DNA of 64,000 nucleotides from Mobula hypostoma (taxonomy: Eukaryota): assembly GCF_963921235.1 (NCBI RefSeq), contig NC_086097.1:144462001-144526000 (forward strand), given 5' to 3'. A model generated the notes under the pieces. It made no database searches and was not told the origin of the DNA. It saw only the letters and a program-made list of their open reading frames with translations. How positions within the stretch are numbered: the first letter of the stretch is position 1; each line of letters starts with the position of its first letter. The position numbers and the translations under genes are program-made. This document shows, in pieces, positions 18,661 through 64,000 of this stretch.

Positions 18661-19007
18661 AGAGAAAGTTTTGTCTTTGTTTAGTTGTTCTACATTTTGA
18701 AGCTGACAATTTCATTACTGGTGCCAAAGTCTTTCACCTTGAAGTTCAAAATGAGAAGACAGAATCTCAACAAACTTCCAGAAGCCCAGGAATACATGAA
18801 AAGGTCCTTGTAGATAAACATCTGCAAGGAACTTATGTTGAAGAGGTGCTGGAATCAAAAGAATAAGAATAGTAAATAGTCAACTTTGATACAATAGGAC
18901 AAGAAAATGTATGGTTACTCACCTCTTTCATATCTGGACTTCACTATTGATTTACCCTAAATAACTCTTTATGTTGACCTAGACCTGTCTTCCTGTTTTA
19001 TCTGCAG

Positions 19008-19490
19008 GTTATCAAATCTGGGGTGGAGACCACCTGCAAATGTCATGGGGTTTCTGGTTCCTGCACAGTTCGGACTTGCTGGAGGCAACTGGCACCTTTC
19101 CATGAGATTGGCAAGTTACTCAAGCTGAAGTATGAGACTTCGCTCAAGGTGGGCAGCACAACTAATGAAGCGACTGGCGAAGGGGAAATTACGCCACCGA
19201 AGAAAGCCATTCCAGCTACCTACCACCAGCAAAATCAGATCCCAAGGACTACTGACTTAGTCTATATCGATGACTCACCAAGCTTCTGCCGGCCAAGCAA
19301 GTACTCACCAGGTACTGCAACACGGAAATGCTATAAGGACAAGAATTGTGAAAGCATCTGCTGTGGCCGGGGACACAATACCCAGAGTCGAGTAGTGACA
19401 CGACCATGCCAGTGCCAAGTGCGCTGGTGCTGTTATGTGGAGTGTAAACAATGTACTCAAAGAGAAGAGATATACACCTGCAAAGACTAA
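19008..19490 (+). CDS. wnt9a: Wnt-9a, final coding exon (upstream exons not found in window)
   Basis: Polypyrimidine tract and acceptor (tcctgttttatctgcAG|GTT) at 19007/19008. Translation [36 protein letters not shown]...[18 protein letters not shown]...[48 protein letters not shown] carries the Wnt CKCHGxSGSC signature. VETTCK, STTNEA and [21 protein letters not shown] match WNT9A rather than WNT9B as I recall them. Stop TAA at 19488-19490. Confidence 0.95.
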
Positions 19491-29500: not shown

Positions 29501-29843
29501 TTCACTGCCAGTTGAGGTGTGATCTCATTTAGGGGAATATCTAATTAAAGAATTGGGTTCAAGGTCAGCACACTCAATTTGAATTTTGCAGTCAAATATT
29601 ATATATTCAGATAACAGTGGAAAGTGTGGGCAACAATATTCCCAATACTTGTTGATGTACTTACCTCTCAATTTGTGCAGATGATTTAATGCCACAGCCA
29701 CAGATCTCAAAATTTCCTTAGTCTGCGTTTTAATAAAATGATGTCCAAGATTTGTTGGATTTATGGAAGAACAACAACTGTAAAAGTCATCTATAATTTT
29801 AGAGAAGGCCATCATCTCTACAATACTTGTGGCAAACTTCCCT

Positions 29844-31016
29844 TGTGATGTATTGGGTTTACTGACGGTGAGTTCTAAACTCAAACGGAGGGCTTAAACT
29901 CTATCAAATATAAATAGCCACGTGTACTCTCACTAAAGCGAGATTATACTGTAATTACCCAATCTTCAAAAACTAGTTTACCTCGCTGTTTATTCTGCAT
30001 GTCGAGTTTTAGTTGCCAACACCTACTAAGTGAGCAATGGGTCCCCCTCACTACCAAGGAAAAGATACTTCCAACTAAACAAAGTACTTTAAACACAGTT
30101 CAATTATTTTCAGTGATATGTGTTTAAATCCAAACAATGTTCTTAAAACATTTAAAATTCATAGAGGATTTCTAGCTTATAAAATATTTCCAAATTACAA
30201 ACCAGTTCTAAAACATAAAGGATTTCCAAAACACAGGTATAATTCCTTTAATCTAAATAGAGACACTAATAATGCAAAACGAATTGTCCACTGAACAAAC
30301 TGAAGCCAGAGGAAGGAATTCTAGTCACCCCATCTTCCTATCGTTCTTCTTGATGTTCTTTAGCCACAGCTGATAAGCTTGAACTGCTCTCTACATTCAT
30401 ACCCTTTTTCTATCACTTGCATGATTTCACACATATATGATATTTCCTCAGTTACCCCTTTAACACAAATTGTCTAAATACATTTTGGAGACATAGATCT
30501 CAGCTTAAAGCTCACAGTTCACAATTAATGCTATGAAGCTAACTTCCATGAGTATATAAATCTTCCAACTAAAAATACATCAGTTATTTGATATGCTAAA
30601 TAATATTATCCACCTGGTTCTGCAATTTTTCATGAACCAAGCAACTTAGAGTCAGCTTGTCTGTTTGAAACAAGCCAAATTAAACAACTCAATATCTTGT
30701 TCTGCATCTCAAGCAGCAATAAACCAGGTGTCGTGAGCTAAATCTTATTTCTCACAGACAGTGTATCTATCCTCAATGCAGTGTGTATGCAAAGCTGTTC
30801 TATACACAGTACTTGTTCTAACATCAAGCTGATTACTGCTTGCCATTTACATTTTAAGGACTGAAGACTGACTTCCATTTATGACTAGAAGTCAATTGTT
30901 AGTTGAAAGTTTAATTACAATTGTTTGTGATTTTACAAGTGGCTGCCACTGTGTTTAGAAAGCAAGATTAACAAACGACCAAAAGGCCTACTGGCCAGGA
31001 GTGAATATTCATCACA
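29844..31016 (-). repeat. 3' LTR of the foamy-like ERV (1173 bp)
   Basis: Bounded by a perfect 7-bp inverted repeat, TGTGATG (29844-29850) and CATCACA (31010-31016). Directly preceded on the minus strand by a polypurine tract. Minus-strand AATAAA at 29989-29994 and candidate TATAA at 30177-30181. Its U5 end is homologous to 43832-43935. Confidence 0.85.
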
Positions 31017-31026
31017 TCCCCCTTTT
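31017..31026 (-). promoter_or_regulatory. Polypurine tract (plus-strand primer site)
   Basis: Minus strand reads AAAAGGGGGA immediately followed by the LTR start TGTGATG. Confidence 0.8.
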
Positions 31027-32689
31027 GTTAAGCAAGATTTTTAGCCCAGCTTCTTCCAACACACATCAGCTTCAAGATCAAGACACCTCTCTGGAACAGA
31101 CTATCATTGTTCCATCTATTCCAGTAGGTTACCAATGCTAGAAAGGCTATCTTTGATCTGATACCAAAGAACTATTGAGTACTTCCAAATTTAGAGGTTT
31201 CTGTGTGATTTCTCTTCAGAATATTGACTTCCTCAATCTCAGCTGGACACATTTCCCAAACCCCAAAGGAATTACAACATTATAATTGTCCACAAGCATG
31301 CAACAATGATGCATCAACATCCATATTAGCCCATCTTTAAGATCTTCTTCCCCACAAACAGTTCTTGCCATTTCTTTGATGCAAGTTCAAATCACTGTCT
31401 CTGTGGCCATTAGTTCATCAGGTCATCTTTTCTCATAGGAGTGTTTGCATTGTGTTTGATGTGGTGCACAACTTTACTGAGGTTTCATGAAAGCAAGACT
31501 CATAAACAATTTACTGATTGTGTATTACTGTCTTCTTATGCCCAAGGGTTAATAAACACACATTTTAATTTTAGAAAATTATATCCATCAGTTACATGAT
31601 TTCACAATATAACAATATGCATAAAAAAGGAAACATTTACAAAAGTTATGAAGAGTACAGTTCTGTTGAGGATTCTGCCTAAACTCACAGAAAAAAAAGT
31701 GTCACAACGTACATTAGAGTTGGCTATGTCCCTCTTGTGGGAGTGAACACCAACTCGTATGATATAACTGAACATTCTGCTACCAACCAGACCATCCGCA
31801 TGTTTCTTCCCATCGTCATGATTCTGGACTCTATAATTGTTCAGGTCTCCCCCCTTTACTTTGTTAAGGACTGGGCCTGACTGAGAAGAATTTGATACAT
31901 CTTTCCAACTTTTGTGATTTCCCTGAAAACTCTAACTGAGCAAGGCAGTTCTGTCAGATCATGGGATTTTATCAACCAAATATACAAACTATTCTTATAG
32001 CATAAAGAGCAATTTTGGTAGGGTTAGTGGTTCTACTTGTTGCATTGTAGGAGTACCAGATATGCAATATATGCTTATACCCAAATAGTAAGTAAAACAC
32101 ATTCATATAGTTCTACCTTAAGACAATATAAAACTTTGTAGATCTTGGAGGCCCTAGGATTACATCTCTGTTTCCAAATAAATCACAATCAAATAGGTAA
32201 AAAGGTTGGCAGGAGTATAGCATTCCTCAGGGGCAGCTATTTTTCTCCTACTCATAAGTCTTTTACCATTGTATAAGATAACACACAAAATATAGTAAAA
32301 TAGATGGTTTGCATATAAAAGTAAAGATATAAATTATGATAATTTAATACTGTCCCTAGCAGTGAACAACAGATTTACAAAGTTTAATCTATTAAAATCT
32401 TAAGAACCATATATATAAAAAGTTACCCATGTTAGAAAGTAAATATGCAACATCCAAATAGGTAAGTAAAAATAATCTTTGTTGACTCATCTCTCTGTGG
32501 GATTGTGTTATTAGACCAATTATTCAGGACAGCAGATAGCAAAGCAGTCATACTAGAGATACATTATATTATATTACAGTGCAGGTCAGGCATGGGAGTT
32601 AAAGAGTCTTAGGAGTGGAGCCATTGTACAAAAAAAGGATAGGTCACCAAACTTGCATTCTTGCAGGCTTGAACATTTTAGAAAATGAG

Positions 32690-33640
32690 CACTACAAAAA
32701 CAGCTAATCCAATGACTAGGGGAATTGTCCATTGGAAAAATGCAAAGAGGAAATCTTCAAACAAATTCAAAGTAGTGCCAATCCACCCAGAAACTGTTCT
32801 TGCTGATGCAGAACCGAAATTTGCAACATCTGGAAAGGTTTTAGGTATTGTTTCAACTAGAACATACAGCCAGTCAGGGGCTTAGTATCAGTCTGAAAAA
32901 GAAGCTTATAAAAGAGAAAATCTGCAGATGCTGGAAGTCCGAACAACACACACACACAAAATGCTGGAGGAACTCAGCAGGTCAAGCAGCATCTATGGAA
33001 AAAAGTACAGTTGACGTTTCTGGCCGAAACCCTTCAGCAGGACTGGAGGAAAAAAGCTGAGGAGTAGATTTGAAATGTGGGGAGAAGGGAGAGAGAAACG
33101 GGAGGTGATAGGTAAAACTTGGAGATGAGGGATGAAGGAATGAGCTAGGAAGATGATTGGTGAAAGAAACAGAAGGCCATGGAAGAAAGAAGAAAGGTGG
33201 GAGGCGTAGTGGAGGCATTACTGGAAGTTTGAGAAATTGATTTTCATGCCATCAGGTTGGAGGCTACCCAAATGGAATATAAGGTGTTGTAAAAGGAGGG
33301 TGTCTCACTCATCTGATTGTGTCAGTTCAGTGACTTGGAATGTATAGAGAAATATTATTTTAATTTGACTGAGTTTCTTCCAGCCATTGTTGATGAATAT
33401 CAAGTCCTCCTAAAAATATTATCATAAGCACCATTTCTTCCTGGAGTTTGTGTCTGTGTTATTCTGAAGACAAAAACACCTTCTGGATGTATTATGCCCG
33501 GGCAATGGATCTATGAGATCATCCTGAAGTAAACAGGAATTTTTACATTTCTTTTTGGATCTTAACATGTATTTTATCTTTTCAATACAACTCACCCTGT
33601 CCTTCCCATTGGTGTGTAGAGGTTCCACGGTCTAACATAA
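32690..33640 (-). pseudogene. env: env remnant (mostly deleted; TM C-terminus retained; split by a Penelope insertion)
   Basis: 32690-32880 (-) translates APDWLYVLVETIPKTFPDVANFGSASARTVSGWIGTTLNLFEDFLFAFFQWTIPLVIGLAVFVVLIF*. This resembles the foamy Env TM end (TPAWIQQLAAATKDVWPAAA...GYLKPILIGVGVILLVILIF) and ends in a hydrophobic anchor. The assignment of 33290-33640 to env is positional and weaker. Confidence 0.7.
32908..33290 (-). mobile_element. Penelope 3' terminal fragment inserted in ERV env
   Basis: acacacaaaatgctggaggaactcagcagg terminal repeat, hammerhead-like motif at 33008-33045, and a purine-rich tract. Confidence 0.85.
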
Positions 33641-34977
33641 GGGTTCTACTCATTCTAGGGGCATAAATCCTGCTAGGGTAGGTTTGATGTTATTTGTGGA
33701 GACAGTTTTACTTACAGTCTTGTTTCCTCTCCTGGTCTTGATTACCACAGTCCTATTGTTGATAACTTAGGTAATGAGACAAGGATGTTTCCATCCAGGA
33801 TGGAAACTAGGGTCAGAATTATTTTTATGGAATTTCTTTTCTTGGAGCCAGTCTCCTTTTTGTTGTATCCAGACTTTCTTTTCAGGTTCTTTTGCTTTCT
33901 CTTGAATTTCCATAAAATCTCTCAATTACTTGAAGAGAGTTGTTTCAGGTATAGGCAATGATCGATGTGAGTTAGTGATCAGGATGTATTTAGGTAAACA
34001 TTGTACATCAAGAAATAAAGTGTAACATTCTTGTGTCCTCCTATTTTCATAATTGACAAGATGTTTATGGCCAATGAACTCCAGGGACAAGTAAAGCCCA
34101 CTTTTGGACTCTAGACCAGTTTTGCCAGACTTTGCTTAATCTTCTGATTTCTTTGCTCCACCCTACCACTCGATAGTGGATGGAATGGAGTGCTGTACTC
34201 CACTTGTATGACTGTTTATTCATACATGGAGATCCTGTATCAGCATGTATTCAGGTGGTGGGTGGGGGGGGGGTGCAAGGTGTGGGAGTGGCAGCATATG
34301 AGAATATGGAGTTTTGGAGTGCTGTGGTTGTTGCGGCCTCATCACAAGAAACTGTGAGGACTAACTGCATATATCCCATACAAAGTTCAACTATCATAAA
34401 AATATACCTATCAGTTTTCTGATGAAGTGGGTTAGTTGGAGATGCTGGATATAGGCCTATTGAATTAATTTGCTACATCTGCATTGGTGCAGTTGGCTTT
34501 GTTTGTCTAGTAGGAAGTGATCTTGTGACTGCTCCTTTATCATAGGCCAGACATTCTTCACAATTTGCAATTCATTGTTTACAATCACTCAACGTGTAAG
34601 GCCACCAGTATAACATAGCTAATTTTGCATGAGTGGCTTGTTCGCCACTATAATTGTGTTTGAATCCTCGGTGGTCTTCTTGAATTGGTGCTTCCCGCTT
34701 GTGGGCAGGATGTATTTGCTTCTTTTTTTATAATCTAGGCCAACATACCCAAACGTTGCCCTCACCTTTAGCTTCATATTTGTACCATGTTGGAAATTCT
34801 TTTGGATTGAGTTCAAAAGTATTGAGAAGAATTCTTAAAACATCAACCTGGTTATTTTTTACTTATTGCTTAGTTACTACCAAAACGGTCTCCCTTACCG
34901 TAGTAATATCCATCCCAAAAGAGGCCTACAGTATGTCCCAGGAAGTGTAACACCTGTACTAATGGTTTAAACAAAAA

Positions 34978-36625
34978 TAGAACATAGAACATAGAACATA
35001 GAAAACCTACAGCACGATACAGGCCCTTTGGCTCACAAGGTTGTGCCGAACATGTCCCTACCTTAGAAAGTACTAGGCTTACCTATAGCCCTCTATTTTT
35101 CTAAGCTCCATATACCTATACAAAAGTCTCTTAAAAGACCCTATCGTATCCGCCTCCACCACCATTGCCGGCAACCCATTCCACGCTCTCACCACTCTCT
35201 GAGTAAAATACTTACCCCTGACATCTTCTCTGTACTTACTCCCCAGCACCTTAAACCTGTGTCCTCTGCGGCAACCATTTCAGCCCTGGGAAAAAGCCTC
35301 TGACTATCCACACGATCAATGTCTCTCATCATCTTATACACCTCTATCAGGTCACCTCTCATCCTCCATTGCTCAAAGGAGAAAAGGCCGAGTTCGCTCA
35401 ACCTGTTCTCATAAGGCATGCCCCCCAATCCAGACAACATCCTTGTAAATCTCTTCTGCACCCTTTCTATGGCTTCCACATCCTTCCAGTAGTGAGGCGA
35501 CCAGGACTAAGCACAGTACTCCAGGTGGGGTCTGACCAGGGTTCTGTATAGCTGCAACATTACCTCTCAGCTCCTAAATTCAATTCCACGATTGATGAAG
35601 GCCAATACACCGTATGCCTTCTTAACCACAGAGTCAACCTGCACAGCTGCCTTGAGCATCCTATGGACTCGGACCCCAAGATCCCTCTGATCCTCCACAC
35701 TTCCAAGAGTCTTACCATTAATACTATATTCTGCTACCATAATTGACCTACCAAAATGAACCATTTCACACTTATCTAGGTTGAACTCCATCTGCCACTT
35801 CTCAACCCAGTTTTGCATCCTATCAATGTCCCGCTGTAATCTCTGACTGCCCTCCACACTATCTACAACACCACCAACCTTTGTGTCATCAGCAAACTTA
35901 CTAACGTATCTCTCCACTTCCTCATCCAGGTCACATAAAAATCACAAAGAGAAGAGGTCCCGGAACAGATCTCTGAGGCACTCCACTGGTGACTGACCTC
36001 CATGCAGAATATGACCCGTCTACAACCACTCTTTGTCTTCTGTTGGCAAGCCAATTCTTGATCCACAAAGCAATGTCCCCTTGGATCCCATGCCTCCTTA
36101 CTTTCTCAATAAGCCTTGCATGGGGTACCTTATCAAATGTCTTGCTGAAATCCATATACACTACATCTACTGCTCTTCTTTCATCACTGTGTTTTGTCAC
36201 ATCCTCAAAAAATTCAATCAGGCTTGTAAGGCATGACCTGCCCGTGACAAAGCCATGCTGACTAATCCTAATCATACCTCTCCAAATGTTCATAAATCCT
36301 GCCTCTCAGTATCTTCTCCATCAACTTACCAACCACTGAGGTAAGTGGGCTAGCTCTACTCCCTTTCTTGAATAAAGGAACAACATCCACAACCCTCCAA
36401 TCCTCCGGATCCTCTCCCGTCCCCATTGATGATGCAAAGATCATTGCCAGATGCTCAGCAATCTCCTCCCTCACCTCCCACAGTAGCCTGGGGTACATCT
36501 CATCCAGTCCCAGTGACTTGTCCAAATTGATGCTTTCCAAAAGCTCCAACACATCCTCTTTCTTAATATCTACATGCTTAAGCTTTTCAGTCTGCTGCAA
36601 GTCATCACTACAATCACCAAGATCC
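34978..36625 (-). mobile_element. CR1 LINE 3' fragment
   Basis: RT fragments (SQHGFVTGRSCLTSL, SKFADDTK, RGDLIEVYK) and a tandem (agaacat)n tail at 34979-35003. Inserted within the ERV RNase H region. Confidence 0.95.
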
Positions 36626-37224
36626 TTTACATAATAATTCATAAATATTCCTAACATAGTTAGAGTCAGTACATATCAATCAAGATCGGCTGTGTTGTAT
36701 TTACTTGTTTTGGACATAATTTTAGGGATTTAGCCTCTGCAATTTGAGTTGTATGATTCCCTAAAGGATGTGCTTACAACTTATGTGGTTCAAAGTCAGT
36801 TTCCGATATAAAGATAATTCCTTTTATAATCAGAAGCAGTGATTATAATTGAGTGGATCCAACTTTCTGGATTTTCATTGTTGATTCATTTCAGTAATAT
36901 ATTTGAGAATAGTGCTCTAAAGGATGTTGTGCTACATTGGGTCATAGAGAAAGTGGCTTTGCATTTTCCATGAAAGGTAAGGATTCTAAGTTAGAGCTTC
37001 CAAGAATGTTTTCTTACATTAAGATGTTGTCTTCTAAAAGTGTTTGCCATTTACCATGTCTAGTTATAGTAGCTCACTGTTCATTTGTTGATAATTTGCT
37101 TTCATTTTTCAAAGCTGCAAGCTCTGTTTGTATAATGATTGGTTTGCCCCTTGCAGTGTCTCACTGCACTGTGTTCAGGCATTGTTCTAGAGCAGTGTAT
37201 TTCTGTTCCACTGATGAGAAATTG

Positions 37225-39147
37225 CAGTGCCTTGTAAAAGTACTCAGCCCCCAACCCTTAGTTCACATGACTGGGTATTGCAACCAGGGATTTTGATCAA
37301 TTTAGCTGACAATTTTTATTTGTGAATCACACGCTTGTTTTTTCACAATAGAATCTTAAAAACTGAGGAAATTGTAAAGCATGAAAAACTAAAAATATAA
37401 AAATTGAAATGCTAGCAGATCAAAAGTATTCATCTCCCTTTGCTCAGTACTTAATTGAACCATCTTCTACAGCTATCACAGACAATAGTCTTTTCGGATA
37501 AGTCTCTTCTAGCTTTGCACAACATGGTGGAGCAAGATTTCCACATTCCTCCTTGTAAAACTGTGCCACATTTGTAGGGGAATGGCAGTGGACAGCAATC
37601 CTGAGGTCCCGCCAGAGATTTTTGATCGGGTTAAAGTCAGGACTCTGACCGGGCCATAGAAGGACATCAATTTTCATTATTTGAAGTCACTCCATGTTTG
37701 CTCTGGCGATGTACCTTGGGTCATTGTCCTGCTGAAAGATGAACTTCCTCCCCAGCTTAAGCTTTCTGACAGAGGCTAGCAGGTTTTTATCCAGGATCTC
37801 TCTGTATATAGCAGAATTTATCTTCCGTTCAATCCTGACCAGATTTCCAGTTCCTGCTGCTGAAAAGTATCCCCATAACATGATGTTGCCTCCACCATAC
37901 TTTACAGTGGTGATGGTGTTAACCGGCAGATGAGCAGTATTAGATTTATGCCCACGTACCGCTTGGTGTTGAAGCCAAAAATTTCCCCTTTTGTCTCAAC
38001 TGAACACAAGACCTTCTTCCACATCATTACAGCATCGTCTAAGTGACACTTTGCAAAGCCTTTGCTTTTCTTTTTAGCCAGCTCTTCTCCCTTGCCACTC
38101 TTCCATAAACACAACTTTATTCAAGGCCTTGGAGATTGTGGAGCCATGAACTTCATCTCCTGTTGCAGCCTCTGGCTTCTGCAGCTCACTCGGTGTGACT
38201 GTTGGCATCACAGTAGCCTCTCTTACAAGTGCCATTCTTCTTTGGCGACTAGGTTTAGAGAGGCGGCCTGACCTAAGCAGTATGGTTGTGGTTTCATATT
38301 TTTTCCACTTCTTCATGATCAGCTGCTCTGAGCTCCAAGGTGTGTTCAGTGCCTTTGAGATGGTCTTGTACCCTTCCCCAGCTTTGCCCTTCTCTAATAT
38401 CAATTCCTTAACTTGGCTTGAATGCTCTTTTGCATTCATTTTGGTTTGGTCTGTTGAAAATCTACCATATTGTTGGGCCTTACAGAGAGAGGGGTACTTA
38501 TTCAGGCGATCTTCAAATTTTCTACTTCAACAAATTGGGTGAGTTGGTAAGGTAATATACAGTATTGTAGCTGAGGAAAACTAGAGTAGTAATTACAAAG
38601 GGGGTGAATACTTTTTCAGCCTCACAATTTTGTTCTTTAATTTTTAATAAATTGTTGACTGATTTTGGAATTTGCCTTTTGATTTGACATGATGCACAAT
38701 GTTCAGAATCAGAATCAGGTTTATTATCACCATGTGATGTGAAATTTGTTAACTTAGCAGCAGCAGTTCAATGCAATACATAATCTAGCAGAGAGAGAGA
38801 AAAAATAACAAATAAAATAAAACAAAATAATAAATAAACAAGTAAATCAATTACGTATATTGAATAGATTTTAAAAATGTGCAAAAACAGAAATATGCAG
38901 AAACAGCAATATTTAAAAAAGTGAGGTAGTGTCTAAAGATTCAACGTCCGTTTAGGTATTAGATGGCAGAGAGGAAGAAGTTGTTCCTGAATCACTGAGT
39001 GTGTGCCTTCAGGCTTCTGTACCTCCTACATGATGGTAACAGGTTTAGATTAGCTCAAAAATCCACCTCAATATACTTTAAGTTTAGAAAATGAGACATT
39101 AAAATGTGAAAATAGTTGTGGGGGTGAAATACTTTTTCAAGGCAATG
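37225..39147 (-). mobile_element. Tc1-like DNA transposon (IR/DR type) with decayed transposase
   Basis: Termini CAGTGCCTTGTAAAAGTACTCAGCCCC and GGGGTGAAATACTTTTTCAAGGCAATG, with TA at 39148-39149 (TG on the left). Inner repeats at ~37423 and ~38597. ORF fragments on the minus strand: [40 protein letters not shown]. Confidence 0.92.
38705..39040 (-). mobile_element. Rex1-type LINE 3' tail inserted in the Tc1
   Basis: (agaatc)2 tail followed by aggtttattatcac, and gatggcagagaggaagaagttgttcctgaatc matching other Rex1 ends. Confidence 0.7.
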
Positions 39148-40089
39148 TATATGTAGCATTGTGTATTGGGGTTTGTGTTTCTTCTTCCTCATTATAGCAG
39201 ATAGCTACAGTGGGTTTTGGAGAAACATGAATTAGCAGAACAGGAGATTTGGTTAGGTCTCTTGTCCTGAGGTCTATAGCTTGCTGAACTGCATTCATCT
39301 ATTTCTCTAGTGTTTCATAATCTTCTGGGGTAAAAACATTAAGTGTTGCATTGTTGTAACGCCTGTTGCTGGGCCAGATTAGGAACTGAGTGTTTATTTA
39401 AAACAAGGTTGTCAATGACCAATCTCCATCATCCATCAGGCTTTGCCTTGGCAAAAATGGGTGAGTTAAATCAAAAAGGTTCTTTTATCAAAACACTTTG
39501 TTTACAGGGGGAATCTGTTGGAATTGCTTTCCTTTGTGTTTGGGAACGTGCCACTGTTTCTGGCATGGGAAAGGATGGTATTCCACTTCAGTTGGCTCAA
39601 TGTCAACCATCCCACAGTAGTTAGGATGTTGTTGTAGGTGGTCATAATATTTGTATACAACGTTTCCATTTTGCTCTGTTCGTTTTAACCTGATGACAGT
39701 TGAGCTGTCTCTGAATATGTATGTTTCTTTCATTTGGTGCAGTTGCATCAGTTGTTGGTTTAATTGTAGTACAAATCCAAAAAGAAACATCCAATGTTCC
39801 TATTTCATGTGATAGTTTACTTCCATCTGGGTGAACTGATGTAAAGACTTTACGGCTACTTCTATTGTTCATTTCATCCCGTATATCTATAGGGGAACTT
39901 TATCATTTGGGCACTCTACCTTGTTTCCATGTATGCCTACAATTTAAATTTTCCCTGTTGGCTCCCCTAGTCTATCGCCTTGACCAATATCGGAATTTAG
40001 CATTGAAACATCTACACCTGTATCAAAATGGTAAGGTCGAATTTTGCCAAATATATGAGCTTTGGCATATGAAAAGGCGAGACTAGATG

Positions 40090-40945
40090 TGCCTATGCCC
40101 TATTTGTCAGATGGAGCATTTTGAGTAGAGTTGTTGTTGAAATTCTCCTCTGCCATTTTTATTACATTAATGTTGGCCTTCCCCTGCTTTACATTTTGAT
40201 TTCTCTGAGCTGCAGGGGAGGGAGTGGACATTTAGGATGGGCCCTGTCCCCTTGTACGGTATATTAGAGGGTGAAGGATAAGGTGGGCCATGACGTGTCT
40301 ATCAGGAGTGTTTCATACTCTTCTCCATAATATCAGTGGGGCCTCAGAATGTTCCCTCTGTCCCGGAAGGAGTATCTCATTCTAAGACTTCCTTCCACAA
40401 AGAGAGGGGGATGGATCTATAGGTTGTAGCCTATACCTAGCGACTACCCATCCAGTTTATGGGGGAATATCTCTTCCGAAGGCAGGCGATCTTCAGGGAA
40501 CTTGTTTGGTTTGTTCATTATGTCTTCTCTGCTGAAGGTCTAATGTAGGAGGATGCTGTGAATGTGATCGACCCAAGGAATGAAGATGTTGTGATGACTT
40601 TGCTACTGTCCCTACTTCCCTGTATGGAAAAGATGAGAACCCTGTGCCAGCACCTGATTACCCTTGTGTGGGAACGAGTGGTAATCCTACTACCACCGAG
40701 TGGGATCACAAGATCACTTCAACAGCCTGAACTCATTCATGTGTTAGGTGTTGATTAAGGGCTGTTCCACGCATGATGCGGGGCTTTCACTGGGATAAAG
40801 GGGTAACATTACAGAATGAACTACAGTAGGTCCCAGTCTGCCCTTCCTATTTGTTCTCCGATCTTATAAACTGCTATTAAGCCCTGGCTTTCAATTATTT
40901 TACTCAGTACAATACTAACTCCTCAACATACATCTCCACCTAATA
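40090..40945 (-). pseudogene. gag: gag remnant (3' part)
   Basis: Lies between PBS and protease. The segment SIVLSKIIESQGLIAVYKIGEQIGRADWDLL (~40825-40917) loosely resembles the foamy Gag capsid-like region. I saw no Cys-His box. Heavily decayed. Confidence 0.5.
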
Positions 40946-40949
40946 TTAG

Positions 40950-43645
40950 CTGAATATCCAAGGATACACAGCGTATAGGAAAAATAGGAAGGTAGGTAAA
41001 GGGGGTGGCGTGGCCCTGATGGTAAGTAACGATATCAAATCAATAGAAACAAGGGACATAGGATCATAAGAGGTAGAATCCTTATAGGTAGAATTAAGAA
41101 ATGGCAAGGGTAAAAAGACACTAATAGCAGTTATATACAGGCCTCCAAACAGCAGCCGGGATGTGGACTACAAGTTGCAGCTGGAAATAGAAAAAGCGTG
41201 TCAGAAGAAAAATATCAAGATAATTATGGGGGATTTTAATATGAAAGTGGATTGGGAAAGTCAGGGAAGGTAATGGATCTCAGGAGAGGGAGTTTGTAGA
41301 ATGCCTACAGGATGGCTTTTTGGAGCAGCTTGTCCAGAAGCCCACCAGGGGACCGGCTGTTTTGGATTGGGTGCTGTGTAACGAACCTGGGGCGATTAGG
41401 GAGCTGGAGGTAAAGGAACCTCTTGTAAGTATAATATGATTGAGTTCAGTTTCAAATTTGAAAAGGAGAAGCTGGTATCAGGTGTATCGATATTTCAGTG
41501 GAACAGGGGAAATTACAGTGGTATGAGAGAGGAACTGGCCCGAGTCAATTGGAAAAGTAAACTAAATGGAGGGACGGCAGAGCAGAGTTGGATGAAATTC
41601 CTACAAGAAATAAGGAAAATGCAGGAAAAATATATTCCAAGAAAAAAGAAAATCATGAATGGAAAAATGCCACAAATATGGCTAACGAGAGAGGTTAAGG
41701 CAAAAATAAAAACAAAAGAAACGGCGTACAAGGAAGCAAAAATTAGTGGGAAAAATGAGGACTGGAAGACCTTTAAAAACTTACAGAAAGAAACTAAGGA
41801 AGTCATTAGGAAAGAAAAGATGAATTATGAAAGGAAGTTGGTGATTAACATAAAAAAGGATACTAAGAGCTTTTTTTAAATATATGAAGAGTAAAAGAGT
41901 GACAAGAGTAGATATGGGACCGATTGAAAATGATGCTGGAGTAACTATAATGGATAACAAAGAGATGGCGGAGGAACTGAATGAGTATTTTGCATCAGTC
42001 TTCACAGTGGAAGACATGAGCAATATACCTGATAGCCAGAGGATCAGGGAATAGAATTAGGTACAGTCAAGGTAACTAGAGAGAAAGTGCTTGAGAAGCT
42101 AAGTGGACTAAGAATAGATAAGTCTCCCAGCCCGGATGAGGTGCACCCACGGGTTCTGAAGGAGGTGGCTTTGGAGATTGTGGAAGCATTGGAAATGATC
42201 TTTCAGGAATCAATAGACTCTGGCATGGTTCCGGAGGACTGGAAGGTCGCAAATGTAGTTCCGCTATTTAAGAAAGGAAGGAGGCAGCAAAAAGAAAATT
42301 ACAGACCTATTAGTCTGACATCGGTGGTTGGAAAGATATTGGAGTCAATCCTCAAGGACGAGGTTATGAAATACCTCGAGGTGCATGACAAGATAGGCCG
42401 AAGCCAGCATGGTTTCATGAAGGGAAGATCCTGCCTTACCAACTTATTGGAATTTTTTGAGGTAATCTGAATAAGATTGACAAGGGAGAGGCTGTGGATG
42501 TTGTGTATTTGGATTTTCAAAAGGCCTTCAATAAGGTGCCGCATATGAGGTTGGTTAATAAGATGAGAGCCCATGGAATTATAGGAAAGTTATTGAAATG
42601 GGTGGAGCATTGGCTGATAGGCAAAAAGCAAAGGGTGGGAATAAAGGGATCTTATTCTGATTGGTTGCCGGTTACTAGTGGTGTTCTGCAGGGGTCGGTG
42701 TTGGGGCCGCTTCTTTTTACGATGAACATTGATGATTTGGATTATGGATTAAATGGTTTTGTGGCCAAGTTTGCGGATGACACCAAGATAGGTGGAGGAA
42801 CAGGAAATGTTGAGGAAACGAAAAGGTTGCAGAGAGACTTAGTCAGTGTAGGAGAGTGGGCAAAGAAATGGCAGATGAGATACAACGTTGACAAATGTAC
42901 AGTTGTACATTTCGGAAGAAGAAATAATCTGGTAGATTATTATTTAGATGGGGAGAAAATTCAAAAATCGGAAGTGCAAAGGGACTTGGGGGTCCTCATG
43001 CAGGATACCCTAAAGGTTAACCACCAAGTTGGATTGGCGGTAAGGAAAGCGAATGCTATGTTGGCATTCATTTCAAGAGGAATAGTGTATAAGAGTAAGG
43101 AGGTGTTAATGAGGCTCTATGGGGCATTAGTGAGACCTCATTTGGAATACTGTGTGCAGTTTTGGGCCTCCTATCTTAGAAAGGAGATACTGACGTTGGA
43201 GAGAGTTCAGAGAAGATTTACGAGGATGATTCCTGGAATGCAGGGGTTATCATATGAGGAGCGTCTGTCGGCTCTTGGATTGTATTCATTAGAGTATAGA
43301 AGAATGAGAGGGGATCTCATAGAAACGTTTCGAATGTTGAAAGGGTTGGACAGAACAGATGTGGAAAGGTTGTTTCCCTTGGTGGGTAAGTCCAGGACAA
43401 GAGGCCATAGTCTTAGAATTAGAGGGTACCCAGTTAAAACAGAGATGAGGAGAAATTTTTTTAGCCAGAGGGTTGTGGATTTGTGGAATTCGTTGCCACA
43501 TATGGCTGTGGAGGCCCGATCATTGAGGGTGTTTAAGGAGGAGATTGACAGGTATCTAATTAGTCAGGGTATCAAGGGATATGGGGAAAAAGCTGGAAAT
43601 TGGAACTAGATGGGTGAATAGTTTAGCTCATGGGGGAGCTGCGGA
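40950..43645 (+). mobile_element. CR1 LINE, 5'-truncated ORF2 (endonuclease end plus RT)
   Basis: AVIYRPP and IMGDFN endonuclease motifs; ORFs with ENYRPISLTS, QHGFMKGRSCLTNL, QGSVLGPLLF, KFADDTK, LEYCVQFW. The 371-aa C-terminal ORF is open. Confidence 0.95.
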
Positions 43646-43811
43646 TATATTATTAACACATTCATAATATTAGCTAGCATTTGCTCATACAATGACCGGA
43701 ACTAGGATGACAGCCATTTTATTGTACTTGGAGAGGTGTCGTAGCAGTTGTCGAGTGCACTCTGAGTTACTAAATAATAATACATTTTAAAGTAATACTG
43801 CAGGTATAATG

Positions 43812-43829
43812 GGGTCACTTTGGGCACCA
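43812..43829 (-). promoter_or_regulatory. Primer binding site, tRNA-Lys1,2-like
   Basis: Minus strand TGGTGCCCAAAGTGACCC lies 2 nt after the 5' LTR end and matches the Lys1,2 PBS TGGCGCCCAACGTGGGGC, used by foamy viruses, at 13/18 positions. Confidence 0.7.
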
Positions 43830-43831
43830 AC

Positions 43832-43960
43832 TATGATGGTATTGGGTTTGCTGACTGCCAAGTTCTAAGTTCAAATGAAGACCTTGATATTAGATATAGA
43901 AAGCCACGAGTACTCTCACTGAAGGGAGATTGATCTGGCAACTCTAGCATTTATACTCTG
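43832..43960 (-). repeat. 5' LTR remnant (U5 end only)
   Basis: tatgatggtattgggtttgctgac...agccacgagtactctcactgaagggagatt aligns with tgtgatgtattgggtttactgac...agccacgtgtactctcactaaagcgagatt at 29844-29945. Homology fades at about 43935-43960. Confidence 0.8.
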
Positions 43961-61004: not shown

Positions 61005-64000
61005 GTGTCATAGTCATAGAAAATTAGCACAGTAACAGGACCTATGGTTTACCTAGTCTGTGATTATTCCCATCAACCTGTATACCAGGACCATAGCCCT
61101 CTATACACCTAACATCCATGTACCTATCCAGACTTCTCTAAAACATTGAAATTGAGCTCGCATGCACCACTTGCACTGTAGCTCATTCCAGGTTCTCATG
61201 ACCCCCTGAGCGAAGATGTTTCCTCTCGTGTTCTCTTTAAACATTTTACCTTTCACCCTTAATCACGACCTCTAGTTGCAGTCCTGCCTGACCTCGGTGG
61301 AAAAAGCCTGCTTGCATTTACCCTATCTATACCCCTCATAATTTTGTATACCTCTTATCACATCTCTCTAGTCTTCCAGGTTCCGAGGGATAAGGTACAA
61401 CCTATTCAATCCTTTTAATAACTGAGGTCCCCCGGTCCCAGCAACATGCTGGTAAATTTTCTCTGTACTCTTTTAACCTTAGTTACATCTTTCCTGTAGG
61501 CAGGTGACCAAAAGTGCACACAATGCTCCAAATTAGGCTTCATCAATGTCTTATACAACCTCAACATAAAAATCTCATCTCCTGTACTCAATACTTTAAT
61601 TTATGAAGGCCAATGTACCAAAAGCTTTCCTTACAACCCTATCTACCTGTGCCGCCACTTTCAATGAATTATGGATCTATATTCCTAGATCTCTTTGTTC
61701 TACTGTACTCCTCTGTGCCCTGCTGTTCACTTTGTAAGACCTATCCTGGTTGGTCCTACCAAAATGCAAAACCTTGTACTTGTCTTCATTAAAATCCATC
61801 TGCCATTTTTCAGCCTATATTTCCAGCTGGTCCAGATCCCACTGCAAGCTTTGACTGCTCACTACACCGCCAGTCTTGGGGTCATCTGCAAATATGCTGA
61901 TCCAGTTAACCACATTATCATCCAGATCATTGATATTGATGACAAACAACAATGGGCTCAGCACTGATCCCTGTGGTACTCTGCAAGTCACAGGTCTCCA
62001 GTCGGAGAGGCAACCGTGCACTGCCACTCTCTGGATTCTCCCACAAAGCCAATGTCTAATACAATTTACTACCTCATCCTGAATGCCGAGCGATTGAACT
62101 TTCTTGACCCATCCTCCCTTGTGGGACCTTATCAAATGCCTTGCTGAAGTCAATGTGGACAACATCCACTATTGCCTTGCCTTCATCAACTTTCCTGGTA
62201 ACTTCTTCGAAAGACTATAAGATTGGTTAGACATGATTCACCACCCACAAAGCCATTCTGACTATCTCTAATCAGTCCATATCTATCCAAATACTCATAT
62301 ATCCAGTCCCTTAGAATACTTACCAATAACTTTCCCACCTCTGATGTCAGGCTCACTGGCTATAATTTCCTGGTTTATTTTTAGACCTTTTCTTAAACAT
62401 CAGAACAACATTAGCTATCCTCTAATCCTCCGATACCTCATCTGAAATTAAGGGTGATTTAAATATCTCTGCCAGGGCCTTGGCAATTTCTGCACTTACC
62501 TCCCACATGGTCTGAGGGAACACCCTGTCAGGCCCTGGAGATTAATCCACCCTAATTTGCCTCAAGATAGCAAACACCTCCTCTGCTGTAATCTGTATAG
62601 GGTCCATAACCTTGCTCCTGCTTTGCCTCACTTCTATAGTCTCTGTGTCTGTCTCCCAAGTAAATGCAGAAATAAATAATCAATTTAAGATCTCCCTTAA
62701 TTCAATTGGCTCTATGAATAGATTACCATTTTGATCTCCAGAGGACCAATTTTGTCCCTTACAAACATTTTGCTCTTAACATACTGTAGAATCCCTTTAC
62801 TCTGTACGCTAGAGCAACCTCTTGCCTTCTTTTAGCTCTCTTGTTTTCCTTCTTAAGTGTTCTCTTGCATTTCTTATACTCCATAAGTAACTCATTTGTT
62901 CCTACCTGCATATACCTGCTAAACATCTCCTATTTTGAAAGATCTTGAAAATAAAGGTTCTGTCACAATCCGGTCCATTGACTCCTCATTTTAGTTAATT
63001 TCCTTTTCCCCGTGTTCCACCGGGCTCCTTGATGAGGGCACCTGATCCTCATTCGAACCGGCAGCATAAAAACTCCAGCTTACATCTACTCGCTGCTGGT
63101 TTGTCACCTCAGCAGTGCGGCTATACTCGTTCCAGACCATCAAGAATGAGTTGAGTCGAGAGCCTGTCGTTCGCTCTTCCTGGGTCGGGTCGAGAGCCTG
63201 TCATCCAGCTGAGTTTTGCTGGCTGTTTGCCGCTTCGTGTGCTACTCAGAGTCGAGATACGAATGAACTGTCATTGTTTGTTTTTGTCGTCTTGTGTCCA
63301 GCTGAGCATTGCAGGCCATTTGCCGCTGCTCCGAGCCACGATACAAATTGTCTGTCGTTGTTTGGTTTTGTCATCTTGTGTCTGGTTGAGTATTGCAGGC
63401 CGTTTGCCGCTGCTCCAAGCCACGATACAAATTGTCTGTTGTTGTTTGGTTTTGTCACTCGGTGTCTAAGTTAAATCCAAGTCTAGGCTCGGTGTCCAAG
63501 TCAAGTCCAAGCCCAGGCTCCAAGTCTCAGTCAAGTCCAAGCCCAGGCTCTGAGTCCAAGTCAACGTACAAGTCCGTGTAAGAATCCTAACCTGCTCTCC
63601 GTGCCTGTGTCCTGCACTTGGGTCTGCTCCCAAATTCCCCTTGTAACAGGTTCCATAAACCTATTATCTTTACCTTTTATTCTAACAGGCACATACAAGC
63701 ATTGTACTCTCAAAACTTAACTTTTGAAGGCCTCCCATTTACCAACTATACCTTCGCTAGAAAACAGCCTGTCTCAATGTACACTTGCCAGATCTTCAGA
63801 TACAATCAAAATTGGCTCTTCTCCAATTTAGAATCTCAACCCACATTTACCCTGAAAGTAATGGTATTACGATCATTAGATGCAAAGTGTTCCCCTACAC
63901 AAACTTCTATCACCTGCCCTGTCTCATTCCCTCATACTAGATCGAGTATCACAGACTCTCTCATTGGGACTTCTACCTACTGATTAAGGAAACATCCCTG
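61005..64000 (-). mobile_element. CR1 LINE (degraded), interrupted by a solo LTR and running off the window end
   Basis: RVPQGSVLSPLLF...IFADDPK in ORF 61815-62165; (tagtca)n tail at ~61000-61020; CR1-like sequence resumes after 63648. Confidence 0.88.
62961..63648. mobile_element. Solo LTR (688 bp) with 5-bp TSD GGTTC
   Basis: Starts TGTCACA and ends TGTAACA. GGTTC lies on both sides (62956-62960 and 63649-63653). Internal ~87-bp tandem repeats and (ccaagt)-rich repeats. Confidence 0.85.

Follow-up and report, generated by a model that had tools for sequence, protein, structure and literature searches.

A dead and very old foamy provirus, probably of the mammalian-type clade, downstream of a Wnt gene in the Mobula hypostoma genome

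A stretch of 64,000 nucleotides from Mobula hypostoma (NC_086097.1, positions 144,462,001 to 144,526,000; hereafter the window) carries, on the minus strand of 29843-43945, the remains of an endogenous retrovirus (ERV) that is almost certainly of foamy virus (spumaretrovirus) origin. The window corresponds to C1:144.46-144.53 Mb of an assembly of 3.48 Gb, and the provirus survives in it as five viral stretches with four insertions between them. We read it as a dead, very old provirus of the clade that includes the mammalian foamy viruses, with the history proposed below, and give this account as a whole a probability of about 85%. The original prediction, made from the letters of the window, had already recognized the element as foamy, and that stands; it had overlooked the probable hundreds of sister copies, the loss of the reverse transcriptase (RT) core, the sharing of the locus with related species, and the grouping with mammalian-type viruses.

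The short Pol motifs quoted in the original prediction were all found on the minus strand where it had placed them. DTARGKPI..RHGKWQTLLED and PLGNHTTQIAE share one frame of 36630-37229, and LYWWP..CEECL, STPFHPLSSGRVEQRN and VINNRTVV..TVSTNNIKPT all lie within 33677-34650. Their likeness to foamy viruses exceeds chance: read in one frame with stops as X, 36630-37229 matched four foamy Pol structures in PDB (E 3e-8, 1.5e-7, 5e-6 and 6e-6, the first being 7o0g and the rest coming from 7o24, 7kse and 7ksf), and the next match had an E value of 0.25. The integrase (IN) C-terminus of the window matched the IN of prototype foamy virus (PFV) only (E 0.006), and two of 12 window frames exceeded Pfam cutoffs, for SH3_11 (PF18103; 27.6 bits, cutoff 25) and Integrase_H2C2 (PF17921; 27.8 bits, cutoff 25.5). 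In the sister copy L025, RT scored 105 bits against foamy Pol in PDB, and the next retroelement RTs reached 46, 39 and 38. An unanchored tblastn search with 50 reference Pol proteins, a comparison that the original prediction had proposed, covered 21 loci, three of which had no match at all; foamy Pol led all other groups in 17 of the remaining 18.

Trees gave the same assignment. In an RT tree of 39 rows the family was sister to nine mammalian-type foamy viruses (100/100), and the placement was unchanged when eight of 20 RT loci from other retroviral families of the genome were added. This placement rests on sister copies, the window copy being without the RT core; five of the six copies tried were used, and L028, with no usable RT, was left out. 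A tree of IN, likewise proposed originally, does include the window copy and again placed it as sister to mammalian-type foamy viruses (100/100). In both trees the stem shared with these viruses measures 1.0 changes per column (100/100), and the family's own branch is long (0.8-0.9). An approximately unbiased (AU) test rejected (p 0.0005) a union of the family with the spuma-like rows from frog, from Latimeria and from elsewhere in this genome, a group that was named only after the tree had been seen. Redundant references were omitted, and the gamma-like and beta-like labels of reference rows rest on the motif used to fetch them, not on names. The original prediction had set its foamy reading against Gypsy, epsilon and ERV-L elements; within a reference set that held no ERV-L or SnRV, placement with Gypsy, gamma-like or beta-like elements was ruled out by PDB scores, tblastn and the RT and IN trees. 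A profile-free homology search with the RNase H stretch of the window gave no useful candidate among 471, and among 1.84 billion entries it returned only one spurious repeat protein. A metagenome scan for foamy-spaced RT motifs had no match, and one gypsy-like contig from a second such scan was kept out of the trees.

The foamy assignment is thus upheld on RT, RNase H and IN, and weakly on Gag and Env. Gag_FV_central matched two of four copies (L022, E 7e-4; L018, E 0.023), both below cutoff, and the homologous stretch of L010 matched foamy Gag at E 1e-4; 15 gag frames gave no zinc-knuckle match, although decay could mask one. Foamy_virus_ENV (PF03408) matched one of four copies (E 2e-6; 26.4 bits, cutoff 27), weakly and in a short gene, and the surface and transmembrane (TM) anchors of foamy Env had summed z values of 5.5-7.1 over eight copies. 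The Env TM end singled out in the original prediction does match foamy Env, at residues 912-973 (E 0.025), but weakly, the best shuffled control reaching 0.073; four of eight sister copies gave z values of 5.0-6.7 there, and the window's own TM end had no foamy match in PDB or Pfam. The protease retains its DTG, and PFV residues 92-169 align weakly.

Signals for reverse transcription were found as predicted. The primer-binding site (PBS; 43829-43812), which we take to be of the tRNA-Lys1,2 type, agrees in 13 of 18 letters with those of two foamy genomes (L029 and L030) and better in sister copies, which differ mainly by CpG decay; its layout, CA plus two nucleotides plus TGG, is the same as in L029 and L030. 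The 3′ polypurine tract (PPT; 31017-31026) is purine-rich in all six copies that aligned at the start of the 3′ long terminal repeat (LTR), L027 not aligning, and it is absent before the 5′ LTR of L013. In IN a purine run occupies the homologous place of the central PPT but does not reproduce the 3′ PPT. The window has another PPT-like tract of purines at 31846-31862, ~830 nt upstream of the 3′ LTR, and most of nine copies keep it.

With the insertions excised, the viral stretches sum to ~7.47 kb, in agreement with the colinear minus-strand provirus of ~7.5 kb first proposed. Of the two LTR ends then described, the 3′ LTR is whole (1174 bp), but of the 5′ LTR just ~110 bp remains (76% identity). 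Parts of gag, pol and env are present, but deletions have removed the RT catalytic core, ~720-790 nt from 5′ gag and ~1.5 kb from env. These missing parts were defined by pairwise comparison of the window with 20 fetched stretches: the RT core measures 507-610 nt in five other copies (L009, L010, L013, L014 and L025), the gag gap 716-790 nt (L009, L018 and L022), and the env loss ~1.5 kb after discounting later insertions in other copies. Adding the missing lengths, the family genome would come to ~12 kb. The features, with a neighbouring Wnt exon given last for context, are as follows (LINE and SINE, long and short interspersed elements).

29843-31016, minus strand: complete 3′ LTR, TG...CA, with AATAAA at 29994; ends set by genome-wide LTR matches.
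31017-31026, minus strand: 3′ PPT, directly before the TG at 31016.
31027-32640, minus strand: env-to-LTR interval, ~1.6 kb here and ~1.8 kb in the family.
32640-32907, minus strand: TM end of env with its membrane anchor.
32908-33290, plus strand: inserted SINE-like high-copy repeat, recognized among the window's repeat families; the site shows an overlap of ~8 nt.
33291-33700, minus strand: env remnants flanking the ~1.5-kb deletion (junction 33415/33413), whose interior is kept in other copies.
33677-34977, minus strand: end of RNase H, and IN (zinc finger, core and SH3 C-terminus), frameshifted.
34978-36625, minus strand: inserted 5′-truncated LINE, presumably CR1-like (RVT_1, E 7e-13); ~90 nt of pol lost at the site.
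36626-37224, minus strand: connection and N-terminal part of RNase H, one frame with stops.
37225-39147, minus strand: inserted Tc1-like DNA transposon (HTH_SB, DDE_3) with 44-nt terminal inverted repeats and a SINE-like piece within.
39148-39338, minus strand: RT thumb/connection remnant, 78-86% identical to many copies.
39338-39351, minus strand: junction of the RT catalytic core deletion (~510-610 nt).
39351-40150, minus strand: decayed protease (DTG at 40024-40016) and RT N-terminus, from translation and tblastn to PFV Pol residues 92-233 (E 8e-5).
40150-40949, minus strand: decayed 3′ part of gag, by its homologous stretches in L022, L018 and L010.
40950-43645, plus strand: inserted LINE fragment, presumably CR1/L2-like (RVT_1, E 7e-19), in place of the missing 5′ gag.
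43646-43717, minus strand: probable gag start, with an ATG at 43717; ATG stands at the aligned place in the window and five of seven aligned copies, GTG in the other two.
43812-43829, minus strand: PBS, two bases after the LTR end.
43832-43945, minus strand: 5′ LTR remnant, U5 end only, matching 29846-29945; unrelated sequence upstream.
18978-19490, plus strand: last coding exon of a Wnt (wnt9-like) gene, an open reading frame (ORF) with Pfam wnt at E 2e-48, ~10.3 kb from the 3′ LTR.

The exon bears out the claim of a Wnt neighbour ~10 kb away; its paralogue label, wnt9a, is that of the original prediction. The four insertions are two LINE RT fragments, one Tc1-like element, whose terminal inverted repeats stand exactly at 37225-37268 and 39104-39147, and one SINE-like repeat of very high copy number. 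All four are real, being missing from other family copies at the edges first given for their excision, but they are serial within the provirus and not nested as had been stated; only the SINE-like piece inside the Tc1-like element (~38703-39042) looks truly nested, from depth and the joints of contigs.

The family is large. The proposed search for other copies was run within the window's own genome, with only 40 candidates scored per search (mostly 69-81% identity), and gave 503 candidates for the IN/env stretch, 338 for gag-pro, 405 for env, 458 for the env-to-LTR interval and 4137 for the LTR. These are first-look candidates and not copy counts; they suggest that internal copies may number in the hundreds and LTRs, mostly solo, in the thousands. 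Some copies are defective in the same way. One deletion of ~640 nt in the protease-RT region is common to L018, L020 and L021, which lie on different contigs or loci and align without a break over its junction; L022 and L023 likewise share another pol deletion, of ~1050 nt. A supposed second shared pol deletion was dropped as a 49-nt gap private to the reference copy. Separate loci with the same pol deletions suggest that defective genomes were copied with Pol from elsewhere.

Comparison among copies indicates an old expansion. Among 12 copies (66 pairs), the median Kimura two-parameter (K2P) distance was 0.27 (range 0.19-0.31), or 0.24 without CpG sites. The window's LTR remnant differs from its own 3′ LTR by 0.276 over 101 nt, paired LTRs at other loci differ by 0.29 over 853 nt and 0.23 over 331 nt, and unpaired LTRs by a median of 0.31. 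Paired LTRs have diverged about as far as copies have from one another (K2P 0.23-0.31), so the copies examined arose in one old period. A divergence of 0.28 gives ~280 Myr (million years) at 0.5e-9 yearly substitutions per site, the rate applied to a catshark element (in the available text of PMC10699275), 140 Myr at 1e-9 and 64 Myr at a mammalian 2.2e-9. The age is thus roughly 60-280 Myr depending on the rate, none of these rates being host-specific; a chimaera rate of 2.2e-10 gives >600 Myr, an age exceeding that of jawed vertebrates, and it was therefore set aside here.

The proposed check for an orthologous locus found the same insertion in other organisms. Part of the stretch is contained in 20 of 24 listed sequencing runs, which carry eight organism labels, and four runs, from organisms B, C, F and H, were compared with the window, 32 of ~700,000 pieces being listed; the word shares of organisms D, E and G are small. 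The junction of LTR and host DNA at 29843 is crossed by contigs of B, C and F (three of the four runs), with none of H among the matches listed. Among these same matches, the 5′ truncation and the RT deletion are crossed by contigs of B and F, and the env deletion by contigs of B, C, F and H. The listed non-LINE pieces differ from the window by 1.8% in B, 7.4% in C, 7.6% in F and 8.9% in H, and paralogues differ by 17-25%, far above the orthologous pieces. Shared junctions at ortholog-level divergence imply that those splits came after both the insertion and the deletions, with the insertion having about three times the age of the split from C, F and H.

Several points weigh against this account or against parts of it. 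No target-site duplication is readable at the window provirus. A foamy reference guided the reading frames of the tree rows, with a possible pull toward foamy viruses, and the trees contain no CoeEFV, no salamander or caecilian, reptile, shark or ray-finned fish foamy-like elements, and no ERV-L or SnRV. The Gag score in Pfam is 19.7 against a curated cutoff of 30, the Env score falls just under its own, and the 12 window frames themselves had no Pfam match to Gag, Env or Spuma_A9PTase (PF03539). The env-to-LTR interval is where foamy viruses keep their accessory genes; in its 1.6-1.8 kb no likeness to Bel1/Bel2 or to Pfam families was found, and a sense-versus-antisense stop-codon test of accessory ORFs could not single out IN, its positive control. 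The ~25 loci examined were picked by similarity to the window. As to age, one paired-LTR stretch, at the locus with 0.23, differs by only 0.149 over 105 nt, and the third of the three paired-LTR loci had no overlap to compare. Finally, the short env described below could be native.

Other identities for the element fare worse. The window's own matches are modest (E 0.006 for the IN C-terminus and 0.025 for Env), as might be expected if a Gypsy, epsilon/gamma or other non-spuma LTR element had foamy-like motifs by chance, but the PDB matches, tblastn and both trees favour foamy by wide margins, and we find this hardly credible. It is also improbable that the family belongs to the fish-type grade of foamy-like ERVs (CmiFLERV, ERV-Spuma.0-Sca and ray-finned fish elements), away from the mammalian-type viruses. 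Published chondrichthyan foamy-like ERVs are of that grade, according to the available text of PMC5512871 and PMC10699275, and no named member of it is among our tree rows. However, the long stem shared with mammalian foamy viruses in the RT and IN trees is fully supported, and two other in-genome spuma-like families fall outside together with the frog and Latimeria proteins in the AU-tested comparison. Gag, Env and the SH3 domain of IN are foamy-like, unlike those of ray-finned fish elements as PMC5512871 presents them in its available text. Fish-type elements are basal and foamy-like only in Pol; judged by proxy, in place of named members, this family is neither. Co-option of the LTR, or of some other part, to regulate the adjacent Wnt gene would fit the distance of ~10 kb from its last exon, the whole 3′ LTR and the persistence of the locus in related organisms. 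Yet within the element orthologous pieces have diverged by 6-10%, close to the ~7% of the host flank, the window LTR is as distant from sister LTRs as those are from each other, and there is no conserved ORF, which makes co-option very improbable.

The form of env bears on how the family spread. In L026 the residues near 352 and 912 of foamy Env are 880 nt apart, versus 1680 nt in foamy viruses, and the family env, at ~2.2-2.3 kb, is ~270 codons shorter than foamy Env. The missing codons belong to the Env interval in which foamy viruses have their furin site (residue 567 of Env in L029), which argues for a deletion. Many of the 40 scored copies show the short form as a colinear alignment in which no extra piece recurs consistently, the membrane anchor is retained, and the annotated env of a newt element is also only ~1.4 kb (in the portion of the PMC5512871 supplement available). 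The same viral origin could therefore be combined with a native compact envelope and spread mainly by germline reinfection, a possible course of events that we nevertheless consider the less likely one, since the shared pol deletions point to mobilization of defective genomes. Between deletion and a natively compact Env taken by themselves, we lean toward deletion at roughly six to four.

For the dead, mammalian-type foamy provirus that we favour, the history is as follows. A spumaretrovirus with a Lys-type PBS, LTRs of 1.17 kb, gag-pro-pol-env and a long env-to-LTR interval entered the germline of an ancestor of the host. Its full-type insertions came to number in the hundreds and its LTR copies in the thousands, and the copies examined date from one old period and have been decaying ever since. 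Part of this spread may have been the copying of defective genomes with Pol supplied in trans, and the dominant short env would suggest env-defective, largely intracellular amplification; a review, in its available text, holds that env-less ERVs spread more easily. By the time of the split from organisms now 7-9% diverged, the window copy was already without its RT core and without the greater part of env and of the 5′ LTR; it has also taken up two LINEs, a Tc1 and SINE-like insertions, and presumably now makes nothing and evolves neutrally. Later gene conversion may have homogenized ~600 nt with a copy 0.5 Mb away. That copy, L023 (G000:C1:143.99 Mb, same strand), is 95-99% identical to the window over 40140-40740 and 88-93% over 34560-34980, compared with 75-86% elsewhere, and the tracts look like later ectopic gene conversion between ancient proviruses, or an assembly artefact.

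Cartilaginous fish foamy viruses are not new in themselves. Wang, Chen and Cui (2023, J Virol 97:e01816-22) reportedly described a cartilaginous fish endogenous foamy virus under a title that includes 'rooting to vertebrate counterparts'; compared by title only, it agrees with the placement obtained in our trees, and this lineage may be among those it treats. The family shares with its sister group in the RT and IN trees, the mammalian foamy viruses (PFV, simian, feline, equine and bovine; P0003-P0016) and P0002, its PBS layout, IN SH3 domain, weak Gag and Env likeness, long LTR and estimated genome of ~12 kb. It is unlike the mammalian viruses in its short env (theirs is ~3 kb), its long own branch, the lack of Bel1/Bel2 or Spuma_A9PTase matches and of a 3′ PPT copy in IN, and in being endogenous at very high copy number. 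CoeEFV, NviFLERV and ERV-Spuma-Rbi, -Ame and -Smu are likewise non-mammalian members of the 'true foamy' clade, and the branching order relative to them lies outside our trees. CoeEFV and amphibian and reptile elements carry Gag_spuma and Foamy_virus_ENV domains and accessory genes unlike known proteins, in the available text of bioRxiv 2020.12.18.423569. Like this family, ERV-Spuma.0-Sca of a catshark (PMC10699275) and CmiFLERV of a chimaera (PMC5512871) are foamy-like ERVs of cartilaginous fish. In the available text of these papers, CmiFLERV-type elements are basal to a clade of mammal, salamander and coelacanth elements and group with a frog element (PMC5512871), whereas the catshark element groups with ray-finned fish elements and is much younger (~36 Myr at 0.5e-9; PMC10699275). 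Chimaera ERV LTR pairs, not stated to be of foamy lineages, differ by 0.024-0.033 in the available text of their source, versus 0.23-0.29 here.

The suggestion of an undescribed elasmobranch lineage is partly supported, but an elasmobranch foamy-like ERV, that of the catshark, is already in print, and the 2023 paper, by its title, concerns a cartilaginous-fish virus. No description of a foamy ERV in a ray was found in a literature search that covered few subscription journals. The available text of PMC10699275 reports a screen of three batoids, and lists elements, among 12 chondrichthyans, only for the catshark. We hold as doubtful the fuller proposal of an undescribed batoid lineage forming the deepest branch of the mammal-type foamy clade, which would have entered the germline >150 Myr ago, ahead of the main radiation of rays, and then reached thousands of loci as an env-deleted 'superspreader'.

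Other observations concern related retroelements. At least four other, younger retroviral families are present in the genome (L068-L087, G000, several contigs), with copies 85-96% alike in three of them. The L072 and L073 groups are spuma-like but do not belong to the mammal-type clade; L073/L078 cluster (98/89) with proteins of frogs and Latimeria that bear the annotation 'NYNRIN-like'. Four such frog and coelacanth entries named 'protein NYNRIN-like' (P0017, P0018, P0020 and P0021) are retroviral Pol polyproteins with RT, RNase H and IN, and one 'NYNRIN-like' cluster has 24 members in two ranid frogs. P0002, a Logan contig of 10,295 nt, encodes an uninterrupted foamy Pol of 1156 aa with 57-62% identity to named foamy viruses over residues 140-750, and two of three trees place it outside every named mammalian foamy virus. 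In the env-to-LTR interval of the window, an AT-rich part (~32000-32530) is 79-81% identical among copies and other parts ~73%, which lower CpG may explain. Elsewhere in the window, 63241-63564 holds short tandem-like repeats with periods of 84 nt and 30 nt.

Foamy viruses anchor the deep retroviral time scale, yet the case for a Palaeozoic age depends largely on assuming co-divergence. The present copy is non-functional, and a cartilaginous-fish foamy virus with a similar tree position has, by its title, been published, which limits its interest. Nevertheless, it places a mammal-type foamy lineage in a cartilaginous-fish-like genome, with LTR divergence 7-10 times that of the published chondrichthyan elements compared above and a copy number that is high for a group described as rarely endogenized (in the available text of PMC10581153). 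Its main value is as a datable orthologous marker: the locus lies beside a conserved gene and is common to several species, so its age is directly testable at the same junction. If the lineage is indeed an undescribed batoid one, orthologous insertions such as the wnt9-linked one would provide a host-calibrated minimum age for marine true foamy viruses.

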